DNA of 64,000 bases from a virus. Lineage: Duplodnaviria; Heunggongvirae; Uroviricota; Caudoviricetes. The position numbers and the translations under genes are program-made. The stretch lies in the IMG/VR virus record IMGVR_UViG_3300021388_000002; one strand, 5' to 3'. Below, one piece after another: positions 8,024-38,228 of the stretch (positions within the stretch are counted from its first letter, which is position 1; each line of letters starts with the position of its first letter). The notes under the pieces are model-generated. The model had not been told where the DNA came from, did not search any database, and saw only the letters and a list, made by a program, of their open reading frames with translations.

Positions 8024-8033
8024 TTGTCTTGCG

Positions 8034-8381: not shown

Positions 8382-8453
8382 CTCCCCTGGCCAGACTCGA
8401 ACTGGAACCTTCCGGTTAACAGCCGGGCGCTCTGCCAATTGAGCTACAGGGGA
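8382..8453 (-). tRNA. tRNA-Asn(GTT)
   Basis: U1-A72, loop CT GTT AA. Confidence 0.92.
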
Positions 8454-9094
8454 TCGTTTATGAAGGCGGCCATCCGGGCGGGCTGCCGGGAGGGCCGGGC
8501 CAGGATAATGCTCACCATGGCAGCGTTGGCGGCGAGCAGGTACCCCGGGTAGATGAGCCCGGCCGCACTGGGCTGATGCACCAGGACCGCAGCCAGGGTC
8601 AGGGTGCCGCCGAGGCCGAACCAGGCGAAACCCGCCCAGGGCTCCCCGCCGGGATCAGCCCAGCCGTGCCGGTATGTCGGGATGAACGCGGCCAGGTCGG
8701 TCAGCGCCGAGATTGTGATGGCCGCCCAGACAGGCAGTGCCCGCGGGCTGGCGATAGCGATCGCCAGCATCACGATCCCGGCGCCAGCCAGTACGGTGCA
8801 CACGGCATCCAGGCGGCTGAATTCCCGGGTCCCGTACATCCAGGCCACGCAGAGCACGATCATGCAGGCAGCCGCATCCAGGCCGGTATAGAAGCCGCTG
8901 GCCAGCTGCCGGGGTGCTACCGCCAGCTCCCCGGCCGTCCCGGTCGCCGCGGCTGCGGACCACAGCGACCAGGACGATAGCCGCAGGTCAGCGCGCTCGT
9001 CCGGTTTCCGGCTGTCCCGGATCATGATCCAGCTGCCATACAGTGTGGCTGCTGCCGCCATGGCTGCCAGGATGATCGCTGCGGCTCCCGGCAT
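8444..9094 (-). CDS. Multi-pass membrane protein
   Basis: About 6-7 hydrophobic helices; stop falls inside the 5' end of tRNA-Asn. Confidence 0.7.
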   Translation of the reverse strand: MPGAAAIILAAMAAAATLYGSWIMIRDSRKPDERADLRLSSWSLWSAAAATGTAGELAVAPRQLASGFYTGLDAAACMIVLCVAWMYGTREFSRLDAVCTVLAGAGIVMLAIAIASPRALPVWAAITISALTDLAAFIPTYRHGWADPGGEPWAGFAWFGLGGTLTLAAVLVHQPSAAGLIYPGYLLAANAAMVSIILARPSRQPARMAAFINDPL

Positions 9095-9099
9095 CGCTG

Positions 9100-9495
9100 C
9101 TACGCCGCCTGTGTCTCAGCGGCCTGCCGGAACGACTCCAGCTCTGCGCTTGTGAACGGGTGTTCCAGGTATCCCGAATCGGACCATTCCTGGTACTCTA
9201 GCTCGCTGCTGTTGCTGCTGAGCCTGGTGACTGCGTAACGCACGTGGTAACCCGAATCCGTGCTGAGGGTGAAGGCCCCCGGCGTCAGCTCCGTCAGCTC
9301 ATAGCAGGTGACGGACCCCGATCTGGCCCGGGACGTATAGACCGTGCCAATCCTGGGTGGCCATTCGCTGGCGGTCTCGGATTCCACAAAATCCAGCCAG
9401 GAGGGCGTGTTCTCCGGGTTGAGCGCAAATGACAGGACATCCACTGCCGGGAGGCTGATGATGATGCGAAGCCGCTGGCCTGCCCTGGGCTTCAC
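9100..9495 (-). CDS. SRPBCC/polyketide-cyclase-like protein
   Basis: LSFALNPENTPSW...YHVRY..ELEYQEW pattern; coupled to neighbours. Confidence 0.6.
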   Translation of the reverse strand: MKPRAGQRLRIIISLPAVDVLSFALNPENTPSWLDFVESETASEWPPRIGTVYTSRARSGSVTCYELTELTPGAFTLSTDSGYHVRYAVTRLSSNSSELEYQEWSDSGYLEHPFTSAELESFRQAAETQAA

Positions 9496-10310
9496 GAGGA
9501 CGTCAGCCCCAGGTGGTCAGACAGGTCGGCCGGGCGGCTGGATTCCGGGCTGCTGCGGGTGTAGTAGTTGCAGGCCATGACAACCCGGAGCTGCGGGTAC
9601 CCGCTGGGTGGTCTCGGTGCCCGCACGCGCCGGATGAGCTGGTCCACGTAATGGGTATGGCCGCGACCATCAAAAGCCAGGAAATGCCCGGCTTGCGGGT
9701 AGATCACAATGGGGGCCTCTTCCACGGCGGCCAGGCCGCGCACGTCGCCCTGGCCGGCTATGCGCAGCGCCCCGCCGCAGCCGGCCGGATGGGAGGTGAA
9801 GTACAGCAGGCCCTGAACGGGCTGGGAATCGACGTGCAGCTCATACCGTGGGCCTTCTGGCTGCACGTTGAGCACAGCCCCGTACCGGATGTCCTGCGCG
9901 ACGCCCAGTTCCTCGGTGCTGATCTCCTGGGCCAGCTGCTTCAGCGGGCCGCGGTACAGGGTGTCAGCCCAGGGCAGCTGGCGGGCCAGGACGTTCCCGG
10001 GCACGACGTAAGTATCCAGCTGGAGAGCCTTGTCGTCCTCACGTGAGGTTACCGAGGTAGGCGTTATCACCTGGTGCACAACCGCAGCGGGATCGGCGGC
10101 CACAGCCAGCACCTGGCGCTGCCAGCCCGCAGGCAAGAGCGATGTCACGTCCCAGTCCCGCCAGCTGAACCGGGACGTCAGGACGGGTGCCGGGCGATGA
10201 CCAAGCAGCCAGTTCTGGCACGGGCTGGGATGAACCAGCCCTCCCTGGGAGCCGAGCGTGAACGGGACGCCGCATTCAGGGCAGGTACCAAGCCGAGATC
10301 GCGTCTTCAC
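9492..10310 (-). CDS. 2OG-Fe(II) dioxygenase-like protein with N-terminal Cys knuckle
   Basis: YELHVD (HxD), GGAL, HTHYV (distal His), terminal R; GGAGG SD. Confidence 0.7.
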   Translation of the reverse strand: MKTRSRLGTCPECGVPFTLGSQGGLVHPSPCQNWLLGHRPAPVLTSRFSWRDWDVTSLLPAGWQRQVLAVAADPAAVVHQVITPTSVTSREDDKALQLDTYVVPGNVLARQLPWADTLYRGPLKQLAQEISTEELGVAQDIRYGAVLNVQPEGPRYELHVDSQPVQGLLYFTSHPAGCGGALRIAGQGDVRGLAAVEEAPIVIYPQAGHFLAFDGRGHTHYVDQLIRRVRAPRPPSGYPQLRVVMACNYYTRSSPESSRPADLSDHLGLTSS

Positions 10311-10360
10311 TGGTTACCTCCTGTGCCTCACCGATTCCGTAAAGTCATCACCGTAACTCA

Positions 10361-10468
10361 TCAGGACCCGAGCCGCCCTGCCACCGCCTGCTCGGCGATC
10401 CGCCACAGCGGCTCGGTATCGAGCAGCAGCCCATCCATGTCAGCGAGCACGGCAAACTCAGCCATCAT
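10361..10468 (-). pseudogene. N-terminal fragment of a HAD phosphatase
   Basis: VLADMDGLLLDTEPLW motif I, then a stop after about 35 aa. Confidence 0.6.
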
Positions 10469-10583
10469 TACCGCCATTTCCGCCCGGCACTCCCTCCGGG
10501 CTCCCGCCTGTCTCCTGATCGCATCAGGCTTACCGTAACCCGTACGTGATCTTGAGGACAAGGCGGGGCGAAGTGATCACTCT

Positions 10584-10660
10584 TGGTAGCGGGGGCAGGA
10601 TTTGAACCTGCGGCCTCTGGGTTATGAGCCCAGTGTGCTGCCGAACTGCACCACCCCGCG
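10584..10660 (-). tRNA. Initiator tRNA-fMet(CAT)
   Basis: C1-U72 mismatch, GGG/CCC in anticodon stem, encoded CCA. Confidence 0.93.
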
Positions 10661-10661
10661 G

Positions 10662-10748
10662 TCGCGGTGACGGGAATCGAACCCGTGCGGTTTCACCCTA
10701 CGCGCTTGAAAGGCGCGCGGCCCGTTAGCCATCAGGGCCCCCACCGCG
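10662..10748 (-). tRNA. Atypical tRNA with TTC (Glu) anticodon and long variable arm
   Basis: 5-bp D stem GGCCC/GGGCC, 6-bp anticodon stem, loop CT TTC AA, about 13-nt variable region. Confidence 0.7.
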
Positions 10749-10755
10749 CTGACCG

Positions 10756-10830
10756 CGTCCCTGGCGGGCTTTGAACCCGCGTCACCGCCTTGAGAGGACG
10801 GCGTCCTGAGCCTGACTAGACGACAGGGAC
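10756..10830 (-). tRNA. tRNA-Glu(CTC)
   Basis: TCGTCTAG D arm, loop CT CTC AA. Confidence 0.9.
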
Positions 10831-11055
10831 CTGGATACTGCTGCTGAAGCATCGGATAGTAGTTACCTGTGCACGGAGGTGGACAGTTGCTAGCAGCAGA
10901 GTTACGGTGCCCTTACTGTCCGCAACAGAGGAAGGGGCCTCCATGGATTTCGTGACTTACCGGTTCACGACCTACCGGTTCTGACGCCCGGCCCCCGCTG
11001 GGGCAACCCCCCGTAACCACAGGAGCCAGGTCTGCTGCCCGGGACCTGGCTCCTG

Positions 11056-11128
11056 TGCGCCCGGCAGGATTTGAACCCGCGACCATCTGCTTAGAGGGCA
11101 GCCGCTCTGTCCGCTGAACTACGGGCGC
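11056..11128 (-). tRNA. tRNA-Arg(TCT), C33
   Basis: CTGC/GCAG stem closes the 7-nt loop CC TCT AA. Confidence 0.85.
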
Positions 11129-11143
11129 CGGTACAGTGCAGGC

Positions 11144-11374
11144 GTGGCCATCGACCAGGGAATTCTCCGGCAGCTCGCCGAGGCCGACATCGACGCCGTG
11201 CCGGCCGGCGACGGCAGGCTCCTGACCCTGACGCACCGCCCGACCGGGATCACCCTGGAGCGGCCGGTGTTCGCTGACGCGCTGAACGTGAGTCACGGCA
11301 TCGGGGCCTTGCTGACCGAGGCGGGCAAGACCGGGTGGGCCGCCAGGGACTCGAACCCTGAACGTGCAACTTAA
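11144..11374 (+). CDS. Small hypothetical protein, antisense to the tRNA array
   Basis: GC3-rich codons; 3' end overlaps tRNA-Lys. Confidence 0.4.
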   Translation: MAIDQGILRQLAEADIDAVPAGDGRLLTLTHRPTGITLERPVFADALNVSHGIGALLTEAGKTGWAARDSNPERAT

Positions 11375-11407
11375 AAGGATGCTGCTCTGCCATTGAGCTA
11401 GCGGCCC
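11336..11407 (-). tRNA. tRNA-Lys(TTT)
   Basis: Cloverleaf, loop CT TTT AA. Confidence 0.9.
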
Positions 11408-11408
11408 G

Positions 11409-11448
11409 TGGGCCGGGCGGGGCTTGAACCCGCGACCCCCGTCTTAGG
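11409..11448 (-). pseudogene. 3' half of split tRNA (anticodon uncertain, Lys-like body)
   Basis: (CC)TAA GACGG GGGTC GCGGG TTCAAGC CCCGC CCGGCCC A; pairs with the 5' half at 11949-11980. Confidence 0.8.
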
Positions 11449-11522
11449 TGGCACGGGTGGGACTTGAACCCACGTACGGCCGATTATGAGTCGGCTGCTT
11501 GGACCAGCTCAGCTACCGCGCC
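11449..11522 (-). tRNA. tRNA-CAT (Met or Ile2), nested copy
   Basis: GCCGA CT CAT AA TCGGC; HNH stop lies in its anticodon loop. Confidence 0.85.
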
Positions 11523-11933
11523 TCGGCCGAACTGGACATCCCGGGCACACTTAATAGAGCAAGAGGACGGATTGCCGCCCTTGACCAGGTGCGTCTGCCT
11601 GCGCAGCCGCTCGAAAGATTTACCGCACCCGGGGCAGACCAGCATAACTACAGCCGCTGGTTTATGCCCCTTCCTGATGTTGGCTGCTCGTGCCAGAGAC
11701 TGGATGTTCGCCGGATCATCATTAGACGGATCGTCGTCTATATGATCAGCGTCCACCTCCTGGGCTGGAATAGCGCCAAGCCGGATTGACAGCAGGTAAC
11801 GAGCGAAGCTCATCGTTGTCCGGTGATGTGGGCTGGTGAGAACAACGATCTTCCTGTTCTGCTTCTGGTCCAGATAGGGCCCATATACCGTGTACGCAGT
11901 AAACGGGGCTGGATGGGGCAGAAGGCTGGCCAC
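11484..11933 (-). CDS. HNH endonuclease with C-terminal Cys motifs
   Basis: VDADHIDDDPSNDDPANIQ HNH core, CPGC and CSIKC. Confidence 0.85.
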   Translation of the reverse strand: MASLLPHPAPFTAYTVYGPYLDQKQNRKIVVLTSPHHRTTMSFARYLLSIRLGAIPAQEVDADHIDDDPSNDDPANIQSLARAANIRKGHKPAAVVMLVCPGCGKSFERLRRQTHLVKGGNPSSCSIKCARDVQFGRGAVAELVQAADS

Positions 11934-11939
11934 GCGATC

Positions 11940-11945
11940 ATTATA
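11940..11945 (-). promoter_or_regulatory. -10 box TATAAT for the HNH (leaderless)
   Basis: Consensus hexamer 6 nt before GTG 11933. Confidence 0.65.
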
Positions 11946-11948
11946 CGT

Positions 11949-11980
11949 GACGTCACTCTGACCAGCTGAGTTACCGGCCC
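11949..11980 (-). pseudogene. 5' half of split tRNA
   Basis: GGGCCGG TA ACTC AGCTGGTCA GAGT G ACGTC. Confidence 0.8.
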
Positions 11981-11985
11981 GTGCG

Positions 11986-12057
11986 TGGCGGAAGGTGGGA
12001 TCGAACCACCGGCCTCTCCCTTATGAGGGGATCGCTCTGCCCCTGAGCTATACCGCC
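11986..12057 (-). tRNA. tRNA-CAT (Met or Ile2)
   Basis: TCCC CT CAT AA GGGA. Confidence 0.88.
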
Positions 12058-12061
12058 GTGG

Positions 12062-12135
12062 TGGGCGAGGGAGGATTTGAACCTCCGACCTTTTCCTTAT
12101 CAGGGAACTGCGAGAACCGGCTACGCTGCTCGCCC
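12062..12135 (-). tRNA. tRNA-Ile(GAT)
   Basis: Loop CT GAT AA. Confidence 0.88.
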
Positions 12136-12146
12136 ATGGTGCTGCG

Positions 12147-12234
12147 CGGAGGAGGTGGGGATCGAACCCACACGGGAGTTACCCCTGACCGTTTTCGGGA
12201 CGGTATCCGGCGCCAGCCCTCGGATGGCCCCTCC
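12147..12234 (-). tRNA. tRNA-Ser(CGA), C33
   Basis: GGAGG acceptor, long variable arm, ACCGT CC CGA AA ACGGT, G73. Confidence 0.85.
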
Positions 12235-12312
12235 AGGTGAAACAGGCAGTGCTGGCAAGGGCGGGTCTCCGACCGCGCGCACTTACATGCCAGCACCAGG
12301 TTCAGGATAAAG

Positions 12313-12399
12313 CGGAGGATGTGAGATTTGAACTCACGAGGGTGTTACCCCAACGCGCTTTCCGGGCGCGCGCCATAGGCCGGACTAGGCGAATCCTCC
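12313..12399 (-). tRNA. tRNA-Ser(GGA), C33
   Basis: CGCGC CC GGA AA GCGCG, long variable arm. Confidence 0.88.
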
Positions 12400-12403
12400 C
12401 GGT

Positions 12404-12751
12404 CTAGCTGAGCCACCAGCGGTACCAGCGCCAGATCACCCAGGCCGCAACCAGCCCGAAGACGCGAACCCTGCCGCCGATCATCCAGATGATGGCCAGG
12501 CTCCCGGCGATGGTGATCCAGCTGCTCAGCTTCTGCCAGCGCCAGCCGGGCAGCCGCTCCAGCTTGCGGACCTGGCCCGTCCAGGTGTTGACCGCACCGC
12601 GCTTGCGCCAGATCCGGAAATGCAGGTGAGCGCTGAGCCGGCGGTCCTGGTCAGACCAGGTGCCCTTGCCGGCGAGCCAGTGCCCGGTGCGCACGCGCAG
12701 GTTGTGCTGCGTGGCGGTACGCGGCGGCTCACCCCAGGACCGTCGCGGCAC
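12404..12751 (-). CDS. Trp-rich small membrane protein
   Basis: C-terminal hydrophobic helices; fills the Ser-Ser spacer. Confidence 0.5.
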   Translation of the reverse strand: MPRRSWGEPPRTATQHNLRVRTGHWLAGKGTWSDQDRRLSAHLHFRIWRKRGAVNTWTGQVRKLERLPGWRWQKLSSWITIAGSLAIIWMIGGRVRVFGLVAAWVIWRWYRWWLS

Positions 12752-12776
12752 ATCCGGGTGATACCCGCCAGGAGCG

Positions 12777-12865
12777 CGGAGGATACAGGATTTGAACCTG
12801 TGAGGGACGCGATGCCCAACCTCATTAGCAGTGAGGCGCCATAGACCGGACTAGGCGAATCCTCC
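12777..12865 (-). tRNA. tRNA-Ser(GCT)
   Basis: CCTCA CT GCT AA TGAGG. Confidence 0.92.
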
Positions 12866-12879
12866 TTGGCCGTGCTCAG

Positions 12880-12964
12880 TGTCCGAGGAGAGATTTGAAC
12901 TCTCACGCTCCGTGGGGAGCACCAGGGCCTGAACCTGGCGTGTCTGCCGTTCCACCACCCGGAC
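12880..12964 (-). tRNA. tRNA-Leu(CAG)
   Basis: CCAGG TT CAG GC CCTGG, long variable arm. Confidence 0.92.
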
Positions 12965-13066
12965 GGGGGAGACCACATTGCCGGTTTTCGCTGACGGTTG
13001 TGGCGGATGCCGCATGAGGTTCAGTCAGGCGGTCCAGCGTCAGGTCAAGACAGGATGTGATCTCAG

Positions 13067-13139
13067 AGTGGGTGACGGGGGTCGAACCCGCGGCCTCTAC
13101 CTTGGCAAGGTAGCGCGCTGCCAGCTGCGCTACACCCAC
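13067..13139 (-). tRNA. tRNA-Gly(GCC)
   Basis: CTACC TT GCC AA GGTAG, U73. Confidence 0.92.
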
Positions 13140-13149
13140 ATGTACTGCG

Positions 13150-13189
13150 AGCCCCACAGCGGGATCGAACCGCTGACCTTCGCCTTACG
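13150..13189 (-). pseudogene. 3' half of split tRNA-Thr(CGT)
   Basis: CGT AA GGCGA AGGTC AGCGG TTCGATC CCGCT GTGGGGC T. Confidence 0.88.
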
Positions 13190-13261
13190 AGCCTGCTCGG
13201 AGGATCGAACTCCGACTATTTCCTTACCAAGGAGGCGTGCTGCCATTGTCACTAAGCAGGC
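13190..13261 (-). tRNA. tRNA-Thr(GGT), nested copy
   Basis: GCCTGCT/AGCAGGC acceptor, loop TT GGT AA; anticodon stem has mismatches. Confidence 0.78.
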
Positions 13262-13662
13262 GTGTTCAGCTCATACTGCTCGGCCAGCCTGATCCCCTTC
13301 TGCTGGTTGTTCCTGGCCGGCTCCAGCCTGAGCGATCCGAGACGGCTTCCCACGTCCTCGACCGGCACCAGGTAGACCTTGGTGTTCTGCGGGCAGTAAA
13401 CGCCGAAGTACTCAGCTTCTCCCCGGTAAGGCCGGGTGCTGCCGCCGCGGTGAGCGTGCGAGCTGGCTGCGTTGAAATCTATGCGGCCATCTCGCATCCA
13501 GCCCGTTTTGCACTGGATGCGCAGGAACTTACCCCCATCGTCCACCACCATGTCGTAGCGACGGCCGTTCCCGAAAGGGATCAGTACGCTGTCGTAGACC
13601 TGGAGAAGGGCTGCCATGACGATGGCTTCGGTCCGATCGCCGATGCTGTGTGTATTAGGCAC
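13252..13662 (-). CDS. PD-(D/E)XK endonuclease, I-Ssp6803I-like
   Basis: IGDRTE...RYDMVVD...RIQCKT...Y.GEAEYFGVY; stop inside the nested tRNA-Thr. Confidence 0.88.
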   Translation of the reverse strand: MPNTHSIGDRTEAIVMAALLQVYDSVLIPFGNGRRYDMVVDDGGKFLRIQCKTGWMRDGRIDFNAASSHAHRGGSTRPYRGEAEYFGVYCPQNTKVYLVPVEDVGSRLGSLRLEPARNNQQKGIRLAEQYELNTPA

Positions 13663-13668
13663 ACCATC

Positions 13669-13674
13669 ATCTTA
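13669..13674 (-). promoter_or_regulatory. -10 box TAAGAT for the endonuclease (leaderless)
   Basis: 6 nt before GTG 13662. Confidence 0.55.
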
Positions 13675-13677
13675 CAC

Positions 13678-13709
13678 AGGCGACGCTCTGCGGGCTGAGC
13701 TAGCGGGGC
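13678..13709 (-). pseudogene. 5' half of split tRNA-Thr(CGT)
   Basis: GCCCCGC TA GCTC AGCCCGCA GAGC G TCGCC T. Confidence 0.88.
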
Positions 13710-13813
13710 GGGAAGGCTGCCGCTGAGTATCTGGGACAGCCTGTATCAGATGACGCAGCTTCTGTGCGTCAGGTGGGCCAGCCCGGCGGGCCGGCAGCCA
13801 GTGAACTAGAGGT

Positions 13814-14269
13814 ATGCGAGCTTCCCCCGGAGACGTCTTCGCGGCCCTGTTCGCCGCGCACCAGGCGGGCGATCACTGGGCCCAGACCTCAGCGCAGGCC
13901 ACCACCAAGGGCCAGCCTGGTGCGCGGGGCCGCCGGGCCTGCGCGGCGCATGTCGCGACGCTGACCGCGGGCAAGGCCGCCGCCCTGGCCGCGCTGCAGC
14001 TGTCCGGGCGCCAGATCAGGCCCGGCCGGGCGGTGATAGCCCTGGCCGCTGACGCCGCCTCGCATTACCTGGCGGACCGGCGCAGCTCTGAGCCGCTGAC
14101 CGGGCTGGCCCGGCTGGCGCACCTGGCCGGGCGGGGCGAGTTCTGGGCACTGGGCCAGCCGCGGCCCGGCCGGGACGACAACCCCGTGCTCGGGACCGGC
14201 AGTTACGCGCTGGATCAGGCGTTCCACATCGGGTGCCTGTGGGCAGCGTCCGCCTGGATGGCATGCTAG
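13814..14269 (+). CDS. DUF3307-like membrane protein
   Basis: HQAGDHWAQT, HVATL, SHYLADRR, LDQAFH His/Asp motifs. Confidence 0.75.
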   Translation: MRASPGDVFAALFAAHQAGDHWAQTSAQATTKGQPGARGRRACAAHVATLTAGKAAALAALQLSGRQIRPGRAVIALAADAASHYLADRRSSEPLTGLARLAHLAGRGEFWALGQPRPGRDDNPVLGTGSYALDQAFHIGCLWAASAWMAC

Positions 14270-14344
14270 CTGGGGTCTGAGGGCTCGAACCTCACGCCTC
14301 CGGGACCAAGGCCCGGCGCTCTGCCAGCGATGAGCTACACCCCA
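14270..14344 (-). tRNA. tRNA-Gln(TTG), C33
   Basis: U1-A72, G73, CCGGG CC TTG GT CCCGG. Confidence 0.85.
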
Positions 14345-14348
14345 CCAG

Positions 14349-14423
14349 AGCCGCCTGCCGGGCTTGAACCGGCCACCTGCTGATTACAAGTCAGCCGCTC
14401 TGCCAGCGATGAGCTAAGGCGGC
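14349..14423 (-). tRNA. tRNA-Thr(TGT)
   Basis: GCTGA CT TGT AA TCAGC. Confidence 0.92.
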
Positions 14424-14773
14424 ACCGTCTTGTGCCCGGGGCGCAGGAAAACCCGGGCCTTTGCGGCTCCGGGCTCCTGCGTTCGTGACTGTCAGGCGTG
14501 GTAAAACATCAGGTCGGTTTCGGTGGTAACCATGACCGCCTCCTCCCGTCAGTAACCATTGGTAGTGGAACCGTAACTCAGAAACAGGTAACTGAAAGGG
14601 TAGTTCTGTCTTACCCAGGACCACAGGGGCCGCAGGTGATCTCGCTGCCGAGGGGCTGGCACATGGAACAGGATCAGGGGACTCCGGCCGCGCGCGCCGT
14701 TATGAGCGAGGTATCCCTGACCGGGCCGGACGGGCGCCTTCGCTCCCCGTTCCCGGCGTCGTGACCGTCCTGC

Positions 14774-14852
<79 letters not shown>

Positions 14853-14859
<7 letters not shown>

Positions 14860-14917
14860 TCGAACGGGGCACCTGCTCATTACGAGTGAGCTGTTCTTCC
14901 GGCTGAACTACCGGGGC
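14853..14917 (-). pseudogene. Truncated tRNA-Thr(CGT) lacking the 3' acceptor strand, fused into tRNA-Leu(GAG)
   Basis: GCCCCGG, D arm, GCTCA CT CGT AA TGAGC, then a T arm whose last 7 nt are the Leu 5' end. Confidence 0.8.
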
Positions 14918-15025
14918 AGCAGCAGCCTGCGAGACCAGGGTCGCAAACTCCTGGCACACCGCACAGGCGTCCCTGTTCCCGGTCCCGCCAGGTAATGCCC
15001 GCGTAGACCGGTCTCGGCTGCCTAG

Positions 15026-15102
15026 CTGCGGTGCCTGGAATCGAACCAGGGTTATCTCCGGGTCCAGAGCCCGGCGGGTTTGCCAGCGTCCCCCACACCG
15101 CA
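15026..15102 (-). tRNA. tRNA-Gln(CTG)
   Basis: CCGGG CT CTG GA CCCGG, U1-A72. Confidence 0.88.
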
Positions 15103-15119
15103 TCGTGAAGCAAAAACCG

Positions 15120-15202
15120 TGGGCGAGGAGGGAGTTGAACCCTCACGCCGGTTAAGGCACTGGTACTTGAGGCCAGCGCGTCTGCCGTTCCGCCACCCGC
15201 CC
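15120..15202 (-). tRNA. tRNA-Leu(CAA)
   Basis: Loop CT CAA GT, long variable arm. Confidence 0.9.
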
Positions 15203-15206
15203 GGGT

Positions 15207-16172
15207 CTAGCACCGGCCCTGGTAGGCGCCCGCCAGGAACGTCGTCCAGGCGTCCCAGTCGGTGCCGTCATGAGACAGCTCGATCGCGGCCCCGGCGTTG
15301 CCCAGCGAGGCGTAGGTGGACAGCGCCCCGTGGTTGGGATTGATCTGCCAGTACCCGCGCTCGCCCACACCGCCGGTTGCGAACTGATTGCCACCAGATT
15401 CGGCCTGGGCGATCTCAGCCGCCATGAACGCCTCGTCCGGGGCGCCGCCCGCCTGGTCCCATAGCGCCTCCAGCCCGGCGCAGGACAGCGTGCCGGACAG
15501 CGCGGTCATGGTGCGCGCCGCAGTGGCGGCCAGGGCAGCCGGGACCAGGGCCGGGGTGGCGTCACCCGGGATGGCCAGCACCTCGCCCGCCATGATCAGG
15601 CTGGGATTGGCGATGACCGCGCGGTTGGCGTCCCAGATCCGGTGCCAGGCTGCCGCGCTGCCCAGTGTCTTCAGCGCGATCGCGGACAGCGTGTCACCCG
15701 GCTGGACGGTGTAGTGCCGGCTGCCCGGGGCCGCCTCGTGGTGCACGACCAGGGCGTCCGTGGTGATGCGGTCCGCCGGGATGTGCGGCGGGAGCGGCGT
15801 GGCGTATATCCGCCAGTCCTGCACCACCTGCTCGGCGTAGGGCTCATCCAGCGCCGGGGTAACCGGGTCCGTCACGGGCGGCGGGGCGAAACTGGCCAGC
15901 TGTGCGGTGATCTGGCCGCCAGGCTGTGCCGGGACCTGCTGGCTCCAGACGGCTGGCGCTGCCACCGGGGTGAAGACGGCCATGGCCGGGGACTGAGGGG
16001 CCAGGAGAGCACCCGCGGCCAGCGCGGCCGGAGCTGCCTTGACCGCCGCGCCCTGGGCCATGGCCTGCGCAGCTGTGGGAGCTGCATGCTGCGGCTGGCT
16101 GTACGGGGCCCTGCGGTGCCTGCCGGGGCTCACGGATGCTCTCCTGACCGGCGGCCGGAGGGGGAGGGACAT
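15207..16172 (-). CDS. LysM + lysozyme/transglycosylase-like protein
   Basis: YTVQPGDTLSAIA LysM; IAQAESGGN...GYWQIN catalytic-type motif. Confidence 0.85.
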   Translation of the reverse strand: MSLPLRPPVRRASVSPGRHRRAPYSQPQHAAPTAAQAMAQGAAVKAAPAALAAGALLAPQSPAMAVFTPVAAPAVWSQQVPAQPGGQITAQLASFAPPPVTDPVTPALDEPYAEQVVQDWRIYATPLPPHIPADRITTDALVVHHEAAPGSRHYTVQPGDTLSAIALKTLGSAAAWHRIWDANRAVIANPSLIMAGEVLAIPGDATPALVPAALAATAARTMTALSGTLSCAGLEALWDQAGGAPDEAFMAAEIAQAESGGNQFATGGVGERGYWQINPNHGALSTYASLGNAGAAIELSHDGTDWDAWTTFLAGAYQGRC

Positions 16173-16255
16173 AAATGGCCGCCTGAACGGGTCACGAGCA
16201 GATCATGAGGGCCGTTCAGGCCAGGCCGGGAGCGTAAGAACCCGGAAAGGTCTTG

Positions 16256-16330
16256 TGCGCCGGGAGAGATTTGAACTCCCGTCCATCTGATTAAGGGTCA
16301 GACGCTCTACCAGGCTGAGCTTACCGGCGC
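16256..16330 (-). tRNA. tRNA-Lys(CTT), C33
   Basis: TCTGA CC CTT AA TCAGA; 3-nt acceptor-D linker. Confidence 0.87.
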
Positions 16331-16341
16331 GTAGTACACAG

Positions 16342-16414
<73 letters not shown>

Positions 16415-16623
16415 GAGGTCCCGGGGCCGTGCCGGTCCAGAGCCTGCCCCAGCCGCTGACCGTGTGCGTCACGGCGCTAGCTGAGCAGGGTGCCGACACC
16501 GTTGTGAGGTGCCCCGGGAGGCATGAGACCCGGACCCCGGCCGAGGTCAGGCTTTACCGGGGCAGCGCTACCCTCCCGGTCACTGGCTCCCATTCACGGG
16601 GCCTGCACCAGCGTCATGCCTAG

Positions 16624-16695
16624 TGGGACCTGGAGATTCTGAGACTCCGACCTACGGTATTTCACACCGTCGCTCTGCCGCTGAGCTAAGGCCCC
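16624..16695 (-). tRNA. tRNA-Phe(GAA) with non-canonical T loop
   Basis: ACGGT GT GAA AT ACCGT; T arm GGAG-TCTCAGAAT-CTCC lacks TTC. Confidence 0.72.
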
Positions 16696-16789
16696 ATGGA
16701 TTTTCCGTTAGCGGAGCTAATGACTGCTGTCCCCGCTTGTGTTAGCCTCGCCGTAACCCGCACATATCGTCCAGTTACGGAATGTGATA

Positions 16790-18016
16790 ATGGCCCCGGT
16801 TACCGCTCCTGCCCGGCCCGCTCGTGTCACCTACCGGGACGTCTTCGCAGTCCGGGAGTTCACCGTGCTGTGGGCGGCCCAGCTGGCCTCGATCGCCGGG
16901 GACCAGTTCGCCCGGATCGCCCTGACGGTACTGGTTTATGACCGGACCCGGAGCGGGCTGCTGGCCGCGGCCACCTTCACCGCGTCCATGCTGCCTATGT
17001 GCCTGGGCGGTATCGGCTTGAGCTGGCTGGCTGACCGCTATCCCCGACGCACCGTGATGGTGGCCTGCGACGCCGTCAGTTTCGTGCTCGTGCTGATCAT
17101 GGCCATCCGCGGGATGCCGCTGGCGGTGCTGGTGGCCCTGCTGGCTGCGGTGTCGCTGGTGTCGGCCCCGTTCGCCTCAGCGCGGGGAGCCGCCAACCGG
17201 GACGTGCTCGGCGCGGAGGCGTACCCGCTCGGCATGGCGGTTACCCTGTCCACCTACCAGGCCGGCCAGGTGGCTGGGTTCGCGGTGGGCGGGGTCCTGA
17301 CCGGGCTGGCCGGGCCACGCGGGGCGCTGCTCGCCGACGCGGCCACGTTCGCCGCCTCGGCGGCACTGATCCTGGCCGGGGTCCGGAGCCGCCCGGCAGG
17401 TAACCCGGCAGCCCAGCTGGAGGGCTCCCAGCTGCTGACCGGGCTGCGGGCCGTGCTCAGCAGCCGGGTTGCGCGGCTGTCCCTGCTGGCCGGGTGGCTG
17501 CCCGCATTTGTCGCGGTCACAGACGGGATCGCCGTGCCGCTGGCGCACTCGCTGGGCGGCGGGCCCGTCACCGCCGGGTGCCTGCTCGCTGCTACTGCCG
17601 CCGGGGTGACCGCCGGGCTGCTGCTATGGCCCCGGCTGGTGCCTGCCACCCGTGGCACCCGCCTGGCTGTGCTGCTCGCCGGGATATCCGCTGCCGTGCT
17701 GGCCGGGTTCGCCGGGCGGCCACCGCTGGCCGGGGCACTGGCCCTGCTGGCGGTTTCCGGGGCTTTCACCTGCTACATGACCTCAGCCAACGCGGTGTTC
17801 GCGGAAGCCGTGCCGGCCGAGCACCTGGGCGCCGCGTTTGGTGTCGGCAACGCCGGGATCATGGCCGGGCAGTCGCTGGCCATCGTGGCGGCCGGGGCCA
17901 TGCTCACCTGGCTCACCCCGCCTGCTGTCATCGCGGTCTGGGGCGGCCTCGGGGTTCTCGCCGCACTGGCGCTGGCCGGGCCGTGGCACCGCCAGCTGGG
18001 TGCCGGCACTGCCTGA
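16790..18016 (+). CDS. MFS transporter
   Basis: About 12 TM helices, motif A-like LADRYPRRTVMV. Confidence 0.88.
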   Translation: MAPVTAPARPARVTYRDVFAVREFTVLWAAQLASIAGDQFARIALTVLVYDRTRSGLLAAATFTASMLPMCLGGIGLSWLADRYPRRTVMVACDAVSFVLVLIMAIRGMPLAVLVALLAAVSLVSAPFASARGAANRDVLGAEAYPLGMAVTLSTYQAGQVAGFAVGGVLTGLAGPRGALLADAATFAASAALILAGVRSRPAGNPAAQLEGSQLLTGLRAVLSSRVARLSLLAGWLPAFVAVTDGIAVPLAHSLGGGPVTAGCLLAATAAGVTAGLLLWPRLVPATRGTRLAVLLAGISAAVLAGFAGRPPLAGALALLAVSGAFTCYMTSANAVFAEAVPAEHLGAAFGVGNAGIMAGQSLAIVAAGAMLTWLTPPAVIAVWGGLGVLAALALAGPWHRQLGAGTA

Positions 18017-18186
18017 TCCGCAGGTATGGCCGTATAAATGGCAACGTGTTACGGTGACACTACTTTCCGTACGGAGCAGAGGGAGAAGACCATGAGGACG
18101 CATCTGTTCGGCTAGCCGCCCGTTCAGGCAGAGCCGGGGTATCCAGGAGGGAGCCCCGGCTCTGCGCACGTCACCAGGAATTCTCC

Positions 18187-18263
18187 TGGTCGGGACGGCG
18201 GGACTCGAACCCGCGGTTTCCGCGCCCCAGACGCGGCGCGCTGCCAGACTGCGCTACATCCCG
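18187..18263 (-). tRNA. tRNA-Pro(TGG), C33
   Basis: C1-G72, CCGCG TC TGG GG CGCGG, encoded CCA. Confidence 0.88.
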
Positions 18264-18451
18264 CTGTGTGGTGCTCCCGCTCTGCGCCGGCCGCCATTCG
18301 CCAGGGACCAGGCCCTGGTGTTACCGACCCGGACGTCCTTCTCCTGCACACCCCGGCCGGGCCTCGGTACGAACGCACCACACACAAGCTGCGATCACTG
18401 GCAGAGCGTGGCCCTTCACTGCCGCTGCACTTAGAGCCGGTGATCGCTGAG

Positions 18452-18525
18452 TCGGAGCGGCGGTATTTGAAACCGCGACCTTCCGGCCCCCAGCCGGACG
18501 CTCTGCCAACCTGAGCCACGCTCCG
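18452..18525 (-). tRNA. tRNA-Pro(GGG)
   Basis: TCCGG CT GGG GG CCGGA. Confidence 0.9.
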
Positions 18526-18529
18526 TTAC

Positions 18530-18654
18530 GGTACGACGCTGGACTTCAGTCAGCTCCCTCTCCAGCAAGGGGCGCCCCATCGTTGCCTGGTTATGAGCCA
18601 GGACGAGTAAGAAGACGCATGCCGCGAACAGGGGGTTACCCTGCACGTCGTACC
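18530..18654 (-). ncRNA. Structured spacer RNA carrying a CAT anticodon-like stem-loop
   Basis: 9-bp terminal stem GGTACGACG/CGTCGTACC; CCTGG CTCATAA CCAGG at 18586-18602. Confidence 0.55.
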
Positions 18655-18657
18655 TAG

Positions 18658-18731
18658 TCGGGAAGGGGAGATTTGAACTCCCGGCCTCTCGCCCCCGAAG
18701 CGAGCGCGCTGCCAAGCTGCGCCACTTCCCG
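18658..18731 (-). tRNA. tRNA-Pro(CGG)
   Basis: CTCGC TT CGG GG GCGAG. Confidence 0.92.
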
Positions 18732-18873
18732 CTGTACCGGCTTTTCCCGTTTACTGGTGCTGGCCAGGCACTCCAGACGTGACTAGGGAGGAGGATTTAA
18801 GGGATTTAGCTGCCGCCCGGGTACCCGGAGATACCCACCAGTTGCCAAGTGCGTCCATCCCGCCGGTACCTCG

Positions 18874-18947
18874 TGGAGCTACGGAGATTTGAACTCCGGA
18901 CCTTTTCCTTGCGAAGGAACTGCGCTACCGGACTGCGCTATAGCCCC
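18874..18947 (-). tRNA. tRNA-Ala(CGC)
   Basis: G3-U70, loop TT CGC AA. Confidence 0.9.
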
Positions 18948-19049
18948 AGGTGCACGCCGGGCGCTTCCGTCCCGGTTATCAATTGGCGCCGTGCCCGCCA
19001 GATGCCAGCCACCCCAGGTACTCATCGCGATGTTTCGCCAGGGCGCTTA

Positions 19050-19178
19050 ACCACCTTTAATGCGGTGCTCTGCCATTTGAGCTACCGGCATGATAATGGT
19101 GCGCTTTTCCGCAACGCGTACTTTGCTCACCACTATCTCCCAAATGCCGGGACGGGATTCGGACCCGCATCTTCCGCC
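19050..19178 (-). ncRNA. Circularly permuted tRNA-like module C with extended acceptor arm
   Basis: T arm GCGGG TCCGAAT CCCGT, then CCGGCAT [52 nt] ATGCCGG, then D arm TA GCTC AAATGGCA GAGC. Confidence 0.7.
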
Positions 19179-19179
19179 G

Positions 19180-19252
19180 TGGAGCCTAGGAGACTCGAAC
19201 TCCTGACCTTCTGCGTGCCACGCAGACGCGCTACCAGCTGCGCCAAGGCCCC
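19180..19252 (-). tRNA. tRNA-Ala(GGC)
   Basis: G3-U70, TCTGC GT GGC AC GCAGA. Confidence 0.92.
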
Positions 19253-19254
19253 TC

Positions 19255-19320
19255 ACGGGTGCTCTATCCGCTGAGCTACAGATCGATGACCTGGCAGGAT
19301 TCGGACCTGCGACCTCCCGC
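19255..19320 (-). ncRNA. Circularly permuted tRNA-like module B
   Basis: GCGGG AGGTC GCAGG TCCGAAT CCTGC CAGGTC ATC GATCTG TA GCTC AGCGGATA GAGC A CCCGT. Confidence 0.78.
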
Positions 19321-19323
19321 TAA

Positions 19324-19388
19324 GACGGCGCTCCAGCCATCGAGCTTCTGGCCGTGGCCAGGCGGGATTCGGACCCGCGCCCTCCGTC
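19324..19388 (-). ncRNA. Circularly permuted tRNA-like module A
   Basis: GACGG AGGGC GCGGG TCCGAAT CCCGC CTGGCC AC GGCCAG AA GCTC GATGGCTG GAGC G CCGTC. Confidence 0.78.
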
Positions 19389-19396
19389 GCTTATGG

Positions 19397-19454
19397 GGTG
19401 CTGCCCCCGGACCGGGCTGTCTAGCAACGCCAGTCCGGGCCGGGAGGCAGCACC
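19397..19454 (-). other. Long hairpin directly 5' of the permuted modules
   Basis: GGTGCTGCC...GGCAGCACC terminal stem. Confidence 0.6.
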
Positions 19455-19483
19455 ATGTGGACGGGGGATGGCGCCCCCGTCAT

Positions 19484-19500
19484 TGATGCTCACGCTATGG
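19484..19500 (-). repeat. 17-bp motif CCATAGCGTGAGCATCA, copy 2, next to TTGACA (19504-19509)
   Basis: Exact inverted copy of 6133-6149. Confidence 0.85.
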
Positions 19501-19554
19501 TCTTGTCAATATTCAGGTGATATACCCGCGCGGCTCTCGCGTTGCTGGTATTCG

Positions 19555-19627
19555 CAGGGACCGGGAGAGTCGAACTCCCACCTTCACAGCTTTGGAGGCT
19601 GTCGCTCACCATCTGAGCCAGATCCCT
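19555..19627 (-). tRNA. tRNA-Trp(CCA), first gene of the array
   Basis: A1-U72, G73, ACAGC CT CCA AA GCTGT. Confidence 0.9.
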
Positions 19628-35873: not shown

Positions 35874-36056
35874 ATGGCAGACCTGGAATCCGTGATCGAT
35901 GAGTGGGCACGGGCCCAGATCGCGGCAGCCGTCCAGCTGCCCGTCCAGCCAGGCGAGCCGGTGAGCCGGGATCTCGCGCACCACATCCGGATGAGCGAGC
36001 AGCTGATGGCCCAGATCATCCGGCCCGGCCCGCTGTGCGTGGTGACAGGGGTCTGA
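35874..36056 (+). CDS. Hypothetical protein
   Basis: Follows the upstream stop directly. Confidence 0.5.
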   Translation: MADLESVIDEWARAQIAAAVQLPVQPGEPVSRDLAHHIRMSEQLMAQIIRPGPLCVVTGV

Positions 36057-36070
36057 CAGGTGGTAATCAA

Positions 36071-36097
36071 ATGCGCGTCCTGATTGTTCATCCAGGC
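36071..36097 (+). pseudogene. Orphaned N-terminus (MRVLIVHPG) of the downstream glycosyltransferase
   Basis: Same 9 residues recur with different codons at 36698-36724. Confidence 0.75.
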
Positions 36098-36123
36098 AGC
36101 CATGAATTACATCCTGGACCAGG

Positions 36124-36129
36124 TAATCT
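36124..36129 (+). promoter_or_regulatory. -10 box TAATCT for the HNH (leaderless)
   Basis: 6 nt before ATG 36136. Confidence 0.55.
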
Positions 36130-36135
36130 CTGTGT

Positions 36136-36681
36136 ATGACCAGGAGATACGCAGAGATACCCGTCACTTGGGAGATGCACGAGCGGTTCGAGGCCAAGCT
36201 GCTGCCAGGTCCGCCATCGCCCGACGAGGAGCTAGCACCAGGCCCGTGCTGGCACTGGTCGGGCGGCCATTTCAAGAAAACGGGCTATGCCATGTTCAGC
36301 GTCAAGCACGCGGACGGGCACTGGGCACCAACTACCGCGCACCGGATTGCGTGGCGGCTGTACCGGGGCGAATTCGACCCCGAGCTGGAACCAGATCATC
36401 TGTGCCGAAACAGAGCGTGTGTGAACCCCTGGCATGGCGAGCCAGTAACGCGGCGCGTCAACATGCTTCGTGGCGACCATCCGACTGCGATTCTCAGCAG
36501 GCTGGGCAAATGCCCGCACGGGCACGAGATGACAGAGGACAATACGCTCACGCGAAAGAGCGGCAAGCGCGAGTGCAAGGCCTGCGTTCAGGCCCGCGAC
36601 CGGGCGCGCAGCAAAGACCGCAAAGAGCACTATCAGCGGATGTACCAGAACCGGAAAGCGAGGCGTGCTGTCGCCTCCTAG
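36136..36681 (+). CDS. HNH homing endonuclease
   Basis: CWHWSG, AHRIAW, DHLCRNRACVNPWH, CPHGHE...RECKAC. Confidence 0.92.
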   Translation: MTRRYAEIPVTWEMHERFEAKLLPGPPSPDEELAPGPCWHWSGGHFKKTGYAMFSVKHADGHWAPTTAHRIAWRLYRGEFDPELEPDHLCRNRACVNPWHGEPVTRRVNMLRGDHPTAILSRLGKCPHGHEMTEDNTLTRKSGKRECKACVQARDRARSKDRKEHYQRMYQNRKARRAVAS

Positions 36682-36697
36682 AGGAGGTGATGCCCCC

Positions 36698-37763
36698 ATG
36701 CGTGTACTGATAGTGCACCCTGGTTTAAGGTCCCGACTTCTCCGTGCACGACGTATATGCCGGATGGCATGAGGCCCTGGCCGGGCTCGGCTGCCAGGTG
36801 GCGGGCTATAACCTCAACGACCGGCTGATCTTCTACTCGATGGCCCTGATGGACACGGGTGAGAAAGACGAGAACGGCCTCCCGGTCGTGCGCCAGGCCA
36901 TGATCCAGGAGCAGGCCTATGCCGCCGCGATCCAGGGCCTGAGCCACGCCTGCTACACATTCTGGCCCGACGTCGTGCTGTTCATCTCGGCTTTCTTCAT
37001 AAACGCTGCGACATTCCAGCTGCTGCGCGAGCGGCGGCACAAGCTGGTCATCCTGCACACAGAATCGCCCTATCAGGACGAGGAGCAGCTGGTCAGGGGA
37101 CAGCTGGCCCACCTGAACCTGCTGAATGACCCCACCAACATTGATGAGTTCAGGCGGTTCAGCCGGGCGGCGTACATGCCGCATGCCTACCGGCCCTCGG
37201 TGCACTATCCCCGGCGCGGCCCAGTCGATCCGGCCCGGGCCAGTGACCTGTGCTTCATCGGCACCGCGTTCCGGTCCCGGGTTGAGTTCTTTGAGGCCAT
37301 GGACCTGTCCGGGCTGGATGTGCTGATCGGCGGCAACGACTGGGGCTCGATCCCGGCCGGCTCCCCGGTTGCGCCGCTGATCGGCTCCGGGCTGGGCAAC
37401 CCGGACTGCGTGGACAACCCCCAGGCGGCTGAGCTGTACCGGCACGCGCGGATGGGCATCAACTTCTACCGCCGTGAGGCTGAGGAAGGCTGGGACACCC
37501 GGGCCTGGGCCATGGGCCCGCGGGAAGTGGAGATGGCGGCCATCGGGCTGCCGTTCCTGCGCGACCCGCGCGGCGAGGGTGACGAGGTGCTGCCCATGCT
37601 GCCAACTTTCGCCGGTCCCGAGGACGCCAGCGAGCAGCTGCGCTGGTGGCTGGAGCATGAGGCCGAGCGCGAGAAAGCGGCGGCTGAAGCCCAGGCGGCG
37701 ATCGCGGGCCGCACCTTTGAGGCCAGCGCACGCACATTTCTCCAGCTCGTCAGCAAGCTATGA
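36698..37763 (+). CDS. Glycosyltransferase (CgeB/DUF3880-like); frame broken by a 7-nt insert at 36725-36731
   Basis: Strong SD + MRVLIVHPG in one frame; PDFSVHDVY...MGPREVEMAAIG in the +1 frame; ORF track starts at GTG 36744. Confidence 0.8.
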
Positions 37764-37799
37764 GGCATAACCCGGTACGTACGTGGGATACTGAGGGAC

Positions 37800-38228
37800 G
37801 TGACCGAGCCGCTGCCACTTCTGGTTGATATCGCACGTCAGTCCACGCTCACGCAGGGCCTGGAGGTGCAGTCAGGAGGCTTCGAGGCGGTCAGAGGAGA
37901 CATTGCCCAGCTCGGTCTTGAGGTGGGCAAGATCGTGACCGCAGTAGCCGCCCTACAGCAGAAGGTAGCAACGCTCATGTCCGAAGACGCCACCGTCGCA
38001 GCCGAAGCAGCCGACATCGAGACCCAGCAGGGCAACATCAGCACTGCTCTGGGCAGCATCCAGCAGCTGTTCGCCGCCCTCCAGACCGAGGTCTCCCAGG
38101 GCAACCTGTCGCAGGCCACCCTGGACGCCCTGTCCAAGGCCCAGAAGGACCTGGACGCCGTGGGCGCCACCGCGCAGACCGACGTGACGGCTGACACGCC
38201 GTCCAGCACGCCAGTCACCGGGTCCTGA
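37800..38228 (+). CDS. Coiled-coil hypothetical protein
   Basis: Heptad-like Q/A/L-rich sequence. Confidence 0.6.
   Translation: MTEPLPLLVDIARQSTLTQGLEVQSGGFEAVRGDIAQLGLEVGKIVTAVAALQQKVATLMSEDATVAAEAADIETQQGNISTALGSIQQLFAALQTEVSQGNLSQATLDALSKAQKDLDAVGATAQTDVTADTPSSTPVTGS

Follow-up and report, generated by a model that had tools for sequence, protein, structure and literature searches.

Introduction

Very few natural systems of translational bypassing are known, namely gene 60 of phage T4 and its relatives, one yeast mitochondrion and three UUA-led candidates in terminase genes of Streptomyces phages, and for one of the last, the large terminase gene of phiHau3, a UUA-led bypass was reportedly proposed by Smith et al. 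in 2013. Here we describe a candidate of this kind in a glycosyltransferase gene on a 64,000-nucleotide stretch of DNA (IMG/VR record IMGVR_UViG_3300021388_000002; hereafter the window, by which the whole stretch is meant), a segment of a large uncultured soil actinophage with approximately 70% G+C, together with comparable sites in relatives of the gene. In the window, the reading frame of this gene is broken after its ninth codon by seven nucleotides (nt) that begin with TTA.

Among 100 terminase genes of Streptomyces phages, three (those of phiHau3 and of the StrepC.1 and S. catenulae prophages) have been described as carrying UUA-led candidate bypass gaps, of 10 nt and 7 nt; the junction peptide of the phiHau3 type was detected by mass spectrometry in E. 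coli, and the hop was proposed to occur when Leu-tRNA(UAA) is lacking (PMC10732093). The earlier note on this DNA, made from its letters, had cited the phiHau3 terminase as a precedent, and that precedent is real (PMC10732093). Two other kinds of event are cited in the same paper: hungry-codon frameshifting and short hops in E. coli (Weiss et al. 1987; Gallant and Lindsley, as cited in PMC10732093), and the Byp elements of Magnusiomyces capitatus mitochondria, which are GC-rich and 27–55 nt long (cited in PMC10732093). Gene 60 of T4 contains a 50-nt coding gap that belongs to the MobA HNH homing-endonuclease element (Huang 1988; Bonocora 2011, as cited in bioRxiv 10.1101/2022.08.31.505936). 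The MobA/gene 60 element consists of the HNH gene, a tail of the upstream fragment that overlaps it, a homologous replacement segment and the gap, which blocks self-nicking, and among its relatives are some in which the nuclease has been lost and the gap kept (Manning & Atkins, bioRxiv 10.1101/2022.08.31.505936).

A coding gap in the glycosyltransferase gene

The gene encodes a CgeB-like glycosyltransferase with a GT-B fold (PF13524 in a Pfam search), for which 2572 homologues were detected. It is preceded by a Shine-Dalgarno (SD) sequence, GAGGAGG (36681–36687, on the plus strand, as are all the features of this gene and of the HNH gene before it), which serves ATG 36698 and overlaps the stop codon of the HNH gene (TAG 36679–36681); a homologous SD and spacer precede the gene in relatives both with and without the gap. 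Codons 1 to 9 (36698–36724; ATG CGT GTA CTG ATA GTG CAC CCT GGT) encode MRVLIVHPG and end in the take-off codon GGT (36722–36724). The coding gap TTAAGGT follows (36725–36731), made up of TTA (36725–36727), A (36728) and the putative landing codon GGT (36729–36731), and the remainder of the gene (36732–37763; PDFSVHDVY...) resumes at CCC 36732 (CCC GAC TTC TCC GTG CAC) and ends at TGA 37761–37763. A TAA at 36726–36728, overlapping the TTA, is a stop in the +1 frame, and the resumed frame of 343 codons is open only from 36729, right behind it. With standard decoding the ATG frame closes at TGA 36770–36772 and yields a 24-residue product (open reading frame (ORF) 36665–36772). Deletion of 36725–36731 gives MRVLIVHPG-PDFSVHDVY, the N-terminus of most homologues, which start MR(V/I)L(I/V)VHPGPDFSV(H/A)DV.

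The earlier note had described the SD, the start at 36698, the nine codons, the TTA-A-GGT arrangement and the resumed frame, all of which inspection of the sequence and its ORFs bore out in every detail, and it had stated that removal of the 7 nt restores MRVLIVHPG-PDFSVHDVY, which does match most homologues. Its account of the gap and flanks stands; it had overlooked a recoded second copy of the opening codons at 36071–36097, the HNH gene that separates these copies and the fact that relatives have conserved the gap.

TTA is exceptional in this DNA, occurring at most 6 times in the ~17,000 codons of those window frames that are high in G+C at the third codon position (GC3), mostly within 5' extensions. 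Scans of the window for other TTA-shift sites (GC3 frame scans and a matched-codon hop scan) gave only 36725.

On the sequence evidence, the glycosyltransferase is probably made by a programmed translational hop over the 7-nt TTA-led gap. Ribosomes would initiate at ATG 36698 and synthesise MRVLIVHPG; with the peptidyl-tRNA-Gly on GGT 36722–36724, UUA, the rarest codon of this high-GC system, would enter the A site and decoding would stall. The peptidyl-tRNA would then release GGT, the mRNA would slide by 7 nt and the tRNA would re-pair with the identical GGT at 36729–36731, after which decoding would restart at CCC to give the canonical enzyme (...HPG-PDFSV...). Where UUA was decoded instead, the 24-residue peptide would result. 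The hop itself, its reliance on scarce Leu-tRNA(UAA) and its efficiency are what we infer from the locus. The phage carries 37 tRNA genes (window 6206–19627, minus strand), including Leu-CAG, Leu-GAG, Leu-CAA, Gly-GCC and Arg-CCU; the set is without Leu-UAA, and also without Leu-UAG and Phe, and the decoding of UUA is therefore left to the host.

Conservation of TTA-led gaps across the gene family

Relatives of the glycosyltransferase gene were found on IMG/VR contigs of 99–210 kb and in metagenome-assembled genomes (MAGs) and genomes of Actinomycetota, and the region 35900–37800 had no DNA match in the phage GenBank collection. The DNA of 110 homologous loci (designated by L numbers), with the window as the 111th, was aligned locus by locus to the intact homologue P0004 by means of a frameshift-aware dynamic programme; the survey took in 80 of the 536 metagenome relatives. 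The earlier note had proposed looking for the insert in homologues, and frame-breaking inserts were present in 30 of the 111 loci (24 of 98 distinct proteins), TTA-led and 2, 4, 5, 7 or 10 nt in length. Of 49 frame-breaking events, 16 lay in close compensating pairs and 33 were unpaired; the eight compensating non-TTA pairs were taken as alignment wobble or old compensated indels. Unpaired breaks began with TTA in frame with the upstream codons in 31 of 33 cases, and ordinary TTA codons numbered 10 among the 38,036 aligned codons of the family (10 of 3,964 Leu codons). The 7-nt gap was not present in 56 canonical loci, which read HPGPDFSV with contiguous flanks.

The gap type of the window recurs as GGA[TTAAGGT]CCT in L001 and L002 (78% protein identity) and as GGA[TTAAGGC]CCG in L035 (59%), and other relatives have CCT TTA G CCC and similar gaps one codon downstream. 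These recurrences bear on the trivial explanation that the 7 nt arose by an assembly or sequencing error: although the contig itself is known from one assembly only, the same type of gap is found in independent assemblies from other samples and sources (L001 and L002 in ENA and Logan, L035 in JGI), and a non-repetitive 7-nt insert is atypical as an error, which makes this explanation extremely improbable.

The gaps occupy approximately eight conserved positions, after Pro8, Gly9, Pro10 and Asn/His11 in the loop past strand β1 and further on after Asp16, within codons 36–40 (YNLNDRL) and after Tyr123 (TESPY|QD), and some genes (L081, L029, L031) carry two or three TTA sites. These positions coincide with the most conserved motifs of the protein, the residues invariant in 40 intact homologues being L4, H7, P8, G9, P10, F12, S13, V14, D16, N36, R40, T119, E120, P122 and Y123. 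In the AlphaFold (AF2) model of P0004 (predicted local distance difference test (pLDDT) score 93.5; best PDB matches MshA, sucrose-phosphate synthase, PimA and BshA), residues 2–7 form strand β1 of the N-terminal Rossmann-like domain of the GT-B fold and residues 8–12 the loop leading to helix α1. The junction HPG|P, likewise invariant in the 40 intact homologues, is predicted to lie within this β1–α1 loop.

In all 16 gap alleles at the first site the upstream-frame peptide M/V-R-x-L-x-x-H-P-G is kept, with codons that change synonymously; the ratio of nonsynonymous to synonymous substitution rates (dN/dS) between gap-bearing alleles was 0.22–0.45 at dS 0.7–1.1, and in-frame stops within aligned codons were seen in none of the 111 loci. 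The gapped genes are, to judge from these patterns, under purifying selection. On a tree built without the gap-bearing columns, the frame-breaking gaps require at least 13 changes of state.

It could be argued that the gene is simply broken and the 7 nt a tolerated scar, for example of endonuclease-triggered repair, the enzyme being either absent or started at GTG 36744 without its first 14 residues. Gene callers do place the start at that GTG in the window protein and approximately 10 relatives, and a glycosyltransferase may be dispensable to a phage. However, no SD lies ahead of GTG 36744, whereas ATG 36698 has a strong one, and a start at V14 would remove strand β1 and the invariant HPGP loop. 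Purifying selection acts both on the opening nine codons and on the body of the gene, in alleles that have diverged to a dS of about 1. Moreover, internal starts cannot rescue gaps at codons 37–40 and 122, nor genes with two or three gaps (L081), and random damage would not begin with TTA in 31 of 33 instances. We consider a broken gene very unlikely.

The two unpaired breaks that do not begin with TTA are a 1-nt loss in a T run (L072) and TTC[TAGCGTC]AGC (L102). The latter, at codon 12 of a Micromonosporaceae MAG, is a stop-led 7-nt insert, or alternatively an extra T with a duplicated AGCGTC, and may represent a stop-led gap or a broken gene. In L072 a T has been lost from the T run at codon 12 (GAT TTT CCG TAG), and a TAT[TTAC]CAG gap lies 110 codons on, with another frame in use between them; this frame change may be due to an assembly error or to a shift of a second kind. 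In a scan of ~395 kb of related loci, candidate hop sites were also seen in genes adjoining the transferase, with open high-GC3 frames on both sides, at CCG[TTAACCT]GGC (L034, minus strand, near 3069) and at TAC[TTATCTAC]GTC (L042, L044, L046 and L047, minus strand); homology did not confirm either, and both were set aside.

Flanking codons and gap lengths

Each of the 11 distinct 7-nt gaps reads X-TTA-N-X', in which X and X' are synonymous codons (Pro six times, Gly three times, Asp and Leu): CCT to CCC, CCT to CCT and CCA to CCA for Pro, GGT to GGT (the window), GGA to GGT and GGA to GGC for Gly, and GAT to GAC and CTT to CTG for the others. The matched-codon hop with a TTA trigger that the earlier note had put forward is thus supported comparatively, by the retention of the gap in relatives and by these 11 of 11 synonymous flanks. 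The 4-nt gaps are always NAT[TTAC], with a cognate landing in TAT to TAC and with the second and third bases kept in CAT to TAC and AAT to TAC. The 5-nt gaps include AAT[TTAAT] (AAT to AAT) and GAT[TTAAC], the 2-nt gap is CTT[TT]AAC (CUU to UUU), and the sole 10-nt gap (L058) lacks a matched landing codon. What the sequences show directly is a genuine, conserved gap that opens with TTA, has matched codons on both sides and is under selection.

Gap length is informative about the order of events. In the closest competing account, UUA would be decoded by Leu-tRNA(UAA) and a +1 frameshift would follow, the A being skipped and GGT read in place of the rare AGG, at a Ty1-like Leu-AGG-N site or by a quadruplet-like reading; the product, MRVLIVHPG-LG-PDFSV..., would be the protein form that in-frame relatives encode. 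The window sequence TTA AGG T does present two consecutive rare codons, the in-frame GGT TTA GGC CCT of L117 and L118 makes the +1 product equal to a natural protein form, and every 4- and 7-nt gap is formally compatible with TTA followed by one skipped base. However, this account fails on the 1-, 2- and 5-nt gaps, which occur in the same two gene families (L113, L031, L081, L029 and L114; the second family is described below). Since a +1 shift after reading of TTA repairs 4- and 7-nt gaps but not those of 1, 2 and 5 nt, movement of the P-site tRNA before TTA is decoded is needed, and re-pairing of that tRNA on a matched or near-matched codon, with TTA unread, restores the canonical protein in every 1-, 2- and 5-nt case and repairs the other gaps too, with the invariant motifs unchanged. 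The same argument from gap length against a post-UUA shift was applied to phiHau3 by Antonov et al. (2023, PMC10732093); in the glycosyltransferases it draws on a far larger number of sites. Furthermore, the Pro-type gaps have the common codon GCC following TTA, so that no A-site stall would be expected there, the phage encodes a tRNA-Arg(CCU) for AGG, and tRNA-Leu(UAA) would presumably re-pair poorly on UAA or UAG. A +1 shift would also add residues within an invariant motif, and it leaves the synonymous flanks of the 11 7-nt gaps unexplained. Taking the gap series together, we regard it as unlikely.

Take-off codons end in T in 22 of 27 distinct cases, despite a GC3 of ~85–90%, and landing codons mostly end in C, both of which are descriptive counts; this could reflect a weak wobble pair that is exchanged for a Watson-Crick pair, or could just be part of the inserted bases. 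Gaps of at least 5 nt, in both families, invariably have A or G next to the TTA on its 3' side, which creates a +1-frame TAA or TAG overlapping the TTA. When a +1-frame stop was placed in the phiHau3 gap, recoding doubled (Antonov et al., PMC10732093). In-frame 6-nt TTA inserts also occur at the same spots, as CCT[TTACCC], CCT[TTACTT], GAT[TTAGGC], CTT[TTACCC] and GGT[TTAGGC], the last in L117 and L118, where it gives HPGLGPDFSV; about half of the in-frame TTA inserts have matched flanking codons.

Several observations weigh against a programmed hop. No significant or shared RNA structure was detected around the gap (fold z-scores −0.05 to −2.3), a 7-bp hairpin in codons 2–7 was not stronger in gap than in intact alleles (Mann-Whitney p = 0.11), and the sole SD is the initiation SD, ~37 nt upstream, with no internal SD. 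There is thus no visible stimulator, and the 5' stem-loop and internal SD that have been proposed as stimulators at sites of the phiHau3 type have no counterpart here. Unstimulated hops in E. coli are inefficient. The nascent chain has just nine residues, which favours peptidyl-tRNA drop-off during the stall. The matched flanks could partly reflect the origin of the insert rather than selection, given that matching is also seen in about half of the in-frame inserts. Finally, the in-frame 6-nt variants may show that the β1–α1 loop tolerates two extra residues, and a +1 shift yielding HPGLGPDFSV therefore stays a live rival at the window site.

A second glycosyltransferase family

TTA gaps were also found in a second glycosyltransferase family (Glycos_transf_1), and the phenomenon is therefore not limited to one gene. 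The member in the window lies at ~1623–2657, with a low-GC HNH_3 gene (973–1698) inserted at its 5' end (window 918–2657) and flanked by two diverged copies of the first codons of the gene, KIFAGHDGG near 921 and RVFAGHDGG at 1626. At the junction of the two genes (1611–1680) the HNH frame reads GAG AAA AAA TTA, and the only possible start of the transferase frame is ATT 1623, 6 nt past AGGAG; if tRNA-Lys slipped by −1 on this A run while TTA stayed unread, the HNH and transferase products would be fused.

Relatives of this second gene carry TTA gaps after codon 14, at SGC(A/S)|(F/W/Y)YRM. Two are of 7 nt, GCT[TTAGGCC]TGG in L112 (~1480–1500; GCT to GCC) and TCC[TTAATCC]TTC in L115 (~380–395; TCC to TCC), the latter with an AP2-domain gene upstream, and one is of 5 nt, GCC[TTACC]TGG in L114 (~405–420). 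The 1-nt case, TTT[T]TAC in L113 (~415–430; TTT to TTT), corresponds to a classical +1 slip, in which tRNA-Phe would move on five U while UUA occupies the A site, and L116 (~440–450) has an in-frame 6-nt insert, GCT[TTAGCC]TAC. Among the 120 nearest proteins, ~47 are annotated with an N-terminus broken at the TTA-gap spot. Elsewhere the window encodes a head-tail adaptor, a minor tail protein, a peptidase and a nucleotide-sugar epimerase.

The HNH homing-endonuclease cassette

The gene immediately upstream of the gapped glycosyltransferase is an HNH_3 homing-endonuclease gene (36136–36681; Pfam PF13392, E 2.7e-9), which lies between two copies of the 5' end of the glycosyltransferase gene. The older copy opens a leader ORF (36071–36139) whose first nine codons, 36071–36097, differ from the copy at 36698 in seven of nine codons, all by synonymous wobble changes. 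The 22-residue leader into which it runs (...SHEL-HPGPGNLCV) contains a TTA in frame at 36107–36109, and the stop of the leader overlaps the HNH start as ATGA, an arrangement which suggests that translation of the nuclease is coupled to the original start of the gene.

Homologues of the HNH gene stand at the same place in L003 (76% identity) and in L036 and L038 (66%), all of which carry a 7-nt TTA gap, and the leader tail LHPG..NLC(V/T) is conserved ahead of the cassette in L003 and L036. The conserved tail places the left cassette junction right after codons 7–10, HPG(P), which is the location of the gap. L035 and L023 have no HNH gene, yet keep the gap and remnants of the older copy, and L035 keeps the last bases of the HNH ORF as well. 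L047 is 98–99% identical to L042 and L046 over 2.6 kb and differs from them by a 4-nt gap, AAT[TTAC]TTC, and by substitutions in eight nearby codons (clustered in codons 6–22), with one at codon 38; the difference looks like the trace of a short gene-conversion tract through which the gap arrived.

A reading of the HNH insert as a group I or II intron or an intein was rejected from the sequence layout: the copies are not joined in frame by any splice-site geometry, and the gap is still present in the second one. A possible HNH remnant upstream of L001 was too weakly similar to claim. L003 has, in addition, a 100-codon ORF (2094–2396) between the leader and the HNH gene, the stop of which overlaps the HNH start as GTGA.

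By analogy with T4 mobA and gene 60, we tentatively assign the gap to the HNH homing-endonuclease cassette, an assignment that we hold to be possible rather than probable. The cassette would have inserted at codon 9/10 of the glycosyltransferase gene, bringing a recoded replacement 5' end, and the gap would shield the cassette from its own nuclease. Such protection from cleavage we infer from the coincidence of cassette junction and gap and from the conversion patch in L047. Against this, the second pair of HNH and glycosyltransferase genes in the window has no gap at the hot spot of its family, and the gaps at codons 16, 36–40 and 122 have no endonuclease nearby. The earlier note had explained the gap by a hop alone; the hop is supported, and the cassette, which it had overlooked, offers a second, non-regulatory reason for the gap.

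A wider proposal, about which we are more doubtful, is that short TTA-led gaps are mobile immunity patches driven by homing endonucleases into conserved motifs of glycosyltransferase genes in soil actinophages. Inserts of 1–10 nt would abolish the target of the nuclease, be passed on by gene conversion and leave the protein unchanged, since ribosomes stalled at the unread UUA would hop to a matched codon. If this were true, hungry-codon bypass would be a general and common route by which phages alter DNA without altering protein, and the same gaps would also sense the Leu-tRNA(UAA) state of the host.

Comparison with known systems

A full-text literature search returned no report of UUA-led gaps in glycosyltransferase genes, nor of a link between UUA-led gaps and homing endonucleases. 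The class of mechanism is already known as a candidate, and the glycosyltransferase series extends a thinly documented kind, the sites of which, according to the authors of the UUA-terminase study, had languished for want of further examples (PMC10732093). If the hops are real, the two gene families would supply more than 25 distinct natural hop sites, by far the largest natural set, in a graded series of gaps (1, 2, 4, 5, 7 and 10 nt) with in-frame controls and near-identical pairs with and without a gap. The rule would be TTA in the A site together with a matched landing codon, and it would become possible to test what governs short hops and how they depend on a rare tRNA. There is also a practical side, as gene callers truncate these genes, giving a wrong start in ~10–25% of annotations in the first family and ~40% in the second.

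Like the phiHau3 terminase, the glycosyltransferase is an actinophage gene with a short frame-breaking insert that has UUA at its 5' end, flanks contiguous in homologues, a conserved junction and a landing codon; at the window site the UUA is directly 3' of the last aligned codon, the insert is not found in the canonical homologues and the landing codon is cognate. The two differ in the gene concerned, in the size of the gap (7 nt here, as in one prophage, against 10 nt in phiHau3), in its position nine codons from the start and in that no 5' stem-loop or internal SD is evident here. The phiHau3 set comprises three of 100 genes, compared with 30 of 111 loci and approximately eight positions in the glycosyltransferase, and gaps of 1–10 nt in two gene families. 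No homing-endonuclease link has been described for phiHau3, whereas the glycosyltransferase gaps have one.

The hungry-codon events in E. coli, as they are described in PMC10732093, share with these sites the re-pairing of peptidyl-tRNA on a nearby cognate or near-cognate codon under A-site starvation, and their shifts of +1, +2, +5 and +6 resemble the series of 1–7 nt; those cases are laboratory constructs or low-efficiency errors, whereas the glycosyltransferase sites are natural, conserved and apparently required for expression. The Byp elements, on the description in that same source, are similar in that a gene family contains many bypassed inserts whose take-off and landing codons match, and in that they show signs of mobility, but they belong to a yeast mitochondrion and are GC-rich and 27–55 nt in length, whereas those described here are from actinophages, 1–10 nt and TTA-led.

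The closest architectural counterpart is T4 gene 60, which likewise has an HNH gene directly upstream of the gapped gene, matched Gly codons for take-off and landing, a diverged replacement segment (HomR in T4, the nine recoded codons here), a conserved peptide tail overlapping the endonuclease start (CTE in T4, ...LHPGPGNLCV with ATGA here) and relatives that lack the nuclease and are still gapped, as are L035 and L023. In T4, however, the gap is 50 nt rather than 7 nt, in an unrelated host gene and phage lineage, and the trigger is UAG with a take-off hairpin and a nascent-peptide signal, where here it would be a rare sense codon with no hairpin signal; protection from cleavage has been demonstrated for MobA and is proposed for the glycosyltransferase cassette. 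By this comparison, the glycosyltransferase cassette appears to work like the MobA/gene 60 cassette without belonging to the same element family. Should the proposed reading hold, it would join two known phage cases, with the trigger of phiHau3 operating within an architecture of the gene 60/MobA style.

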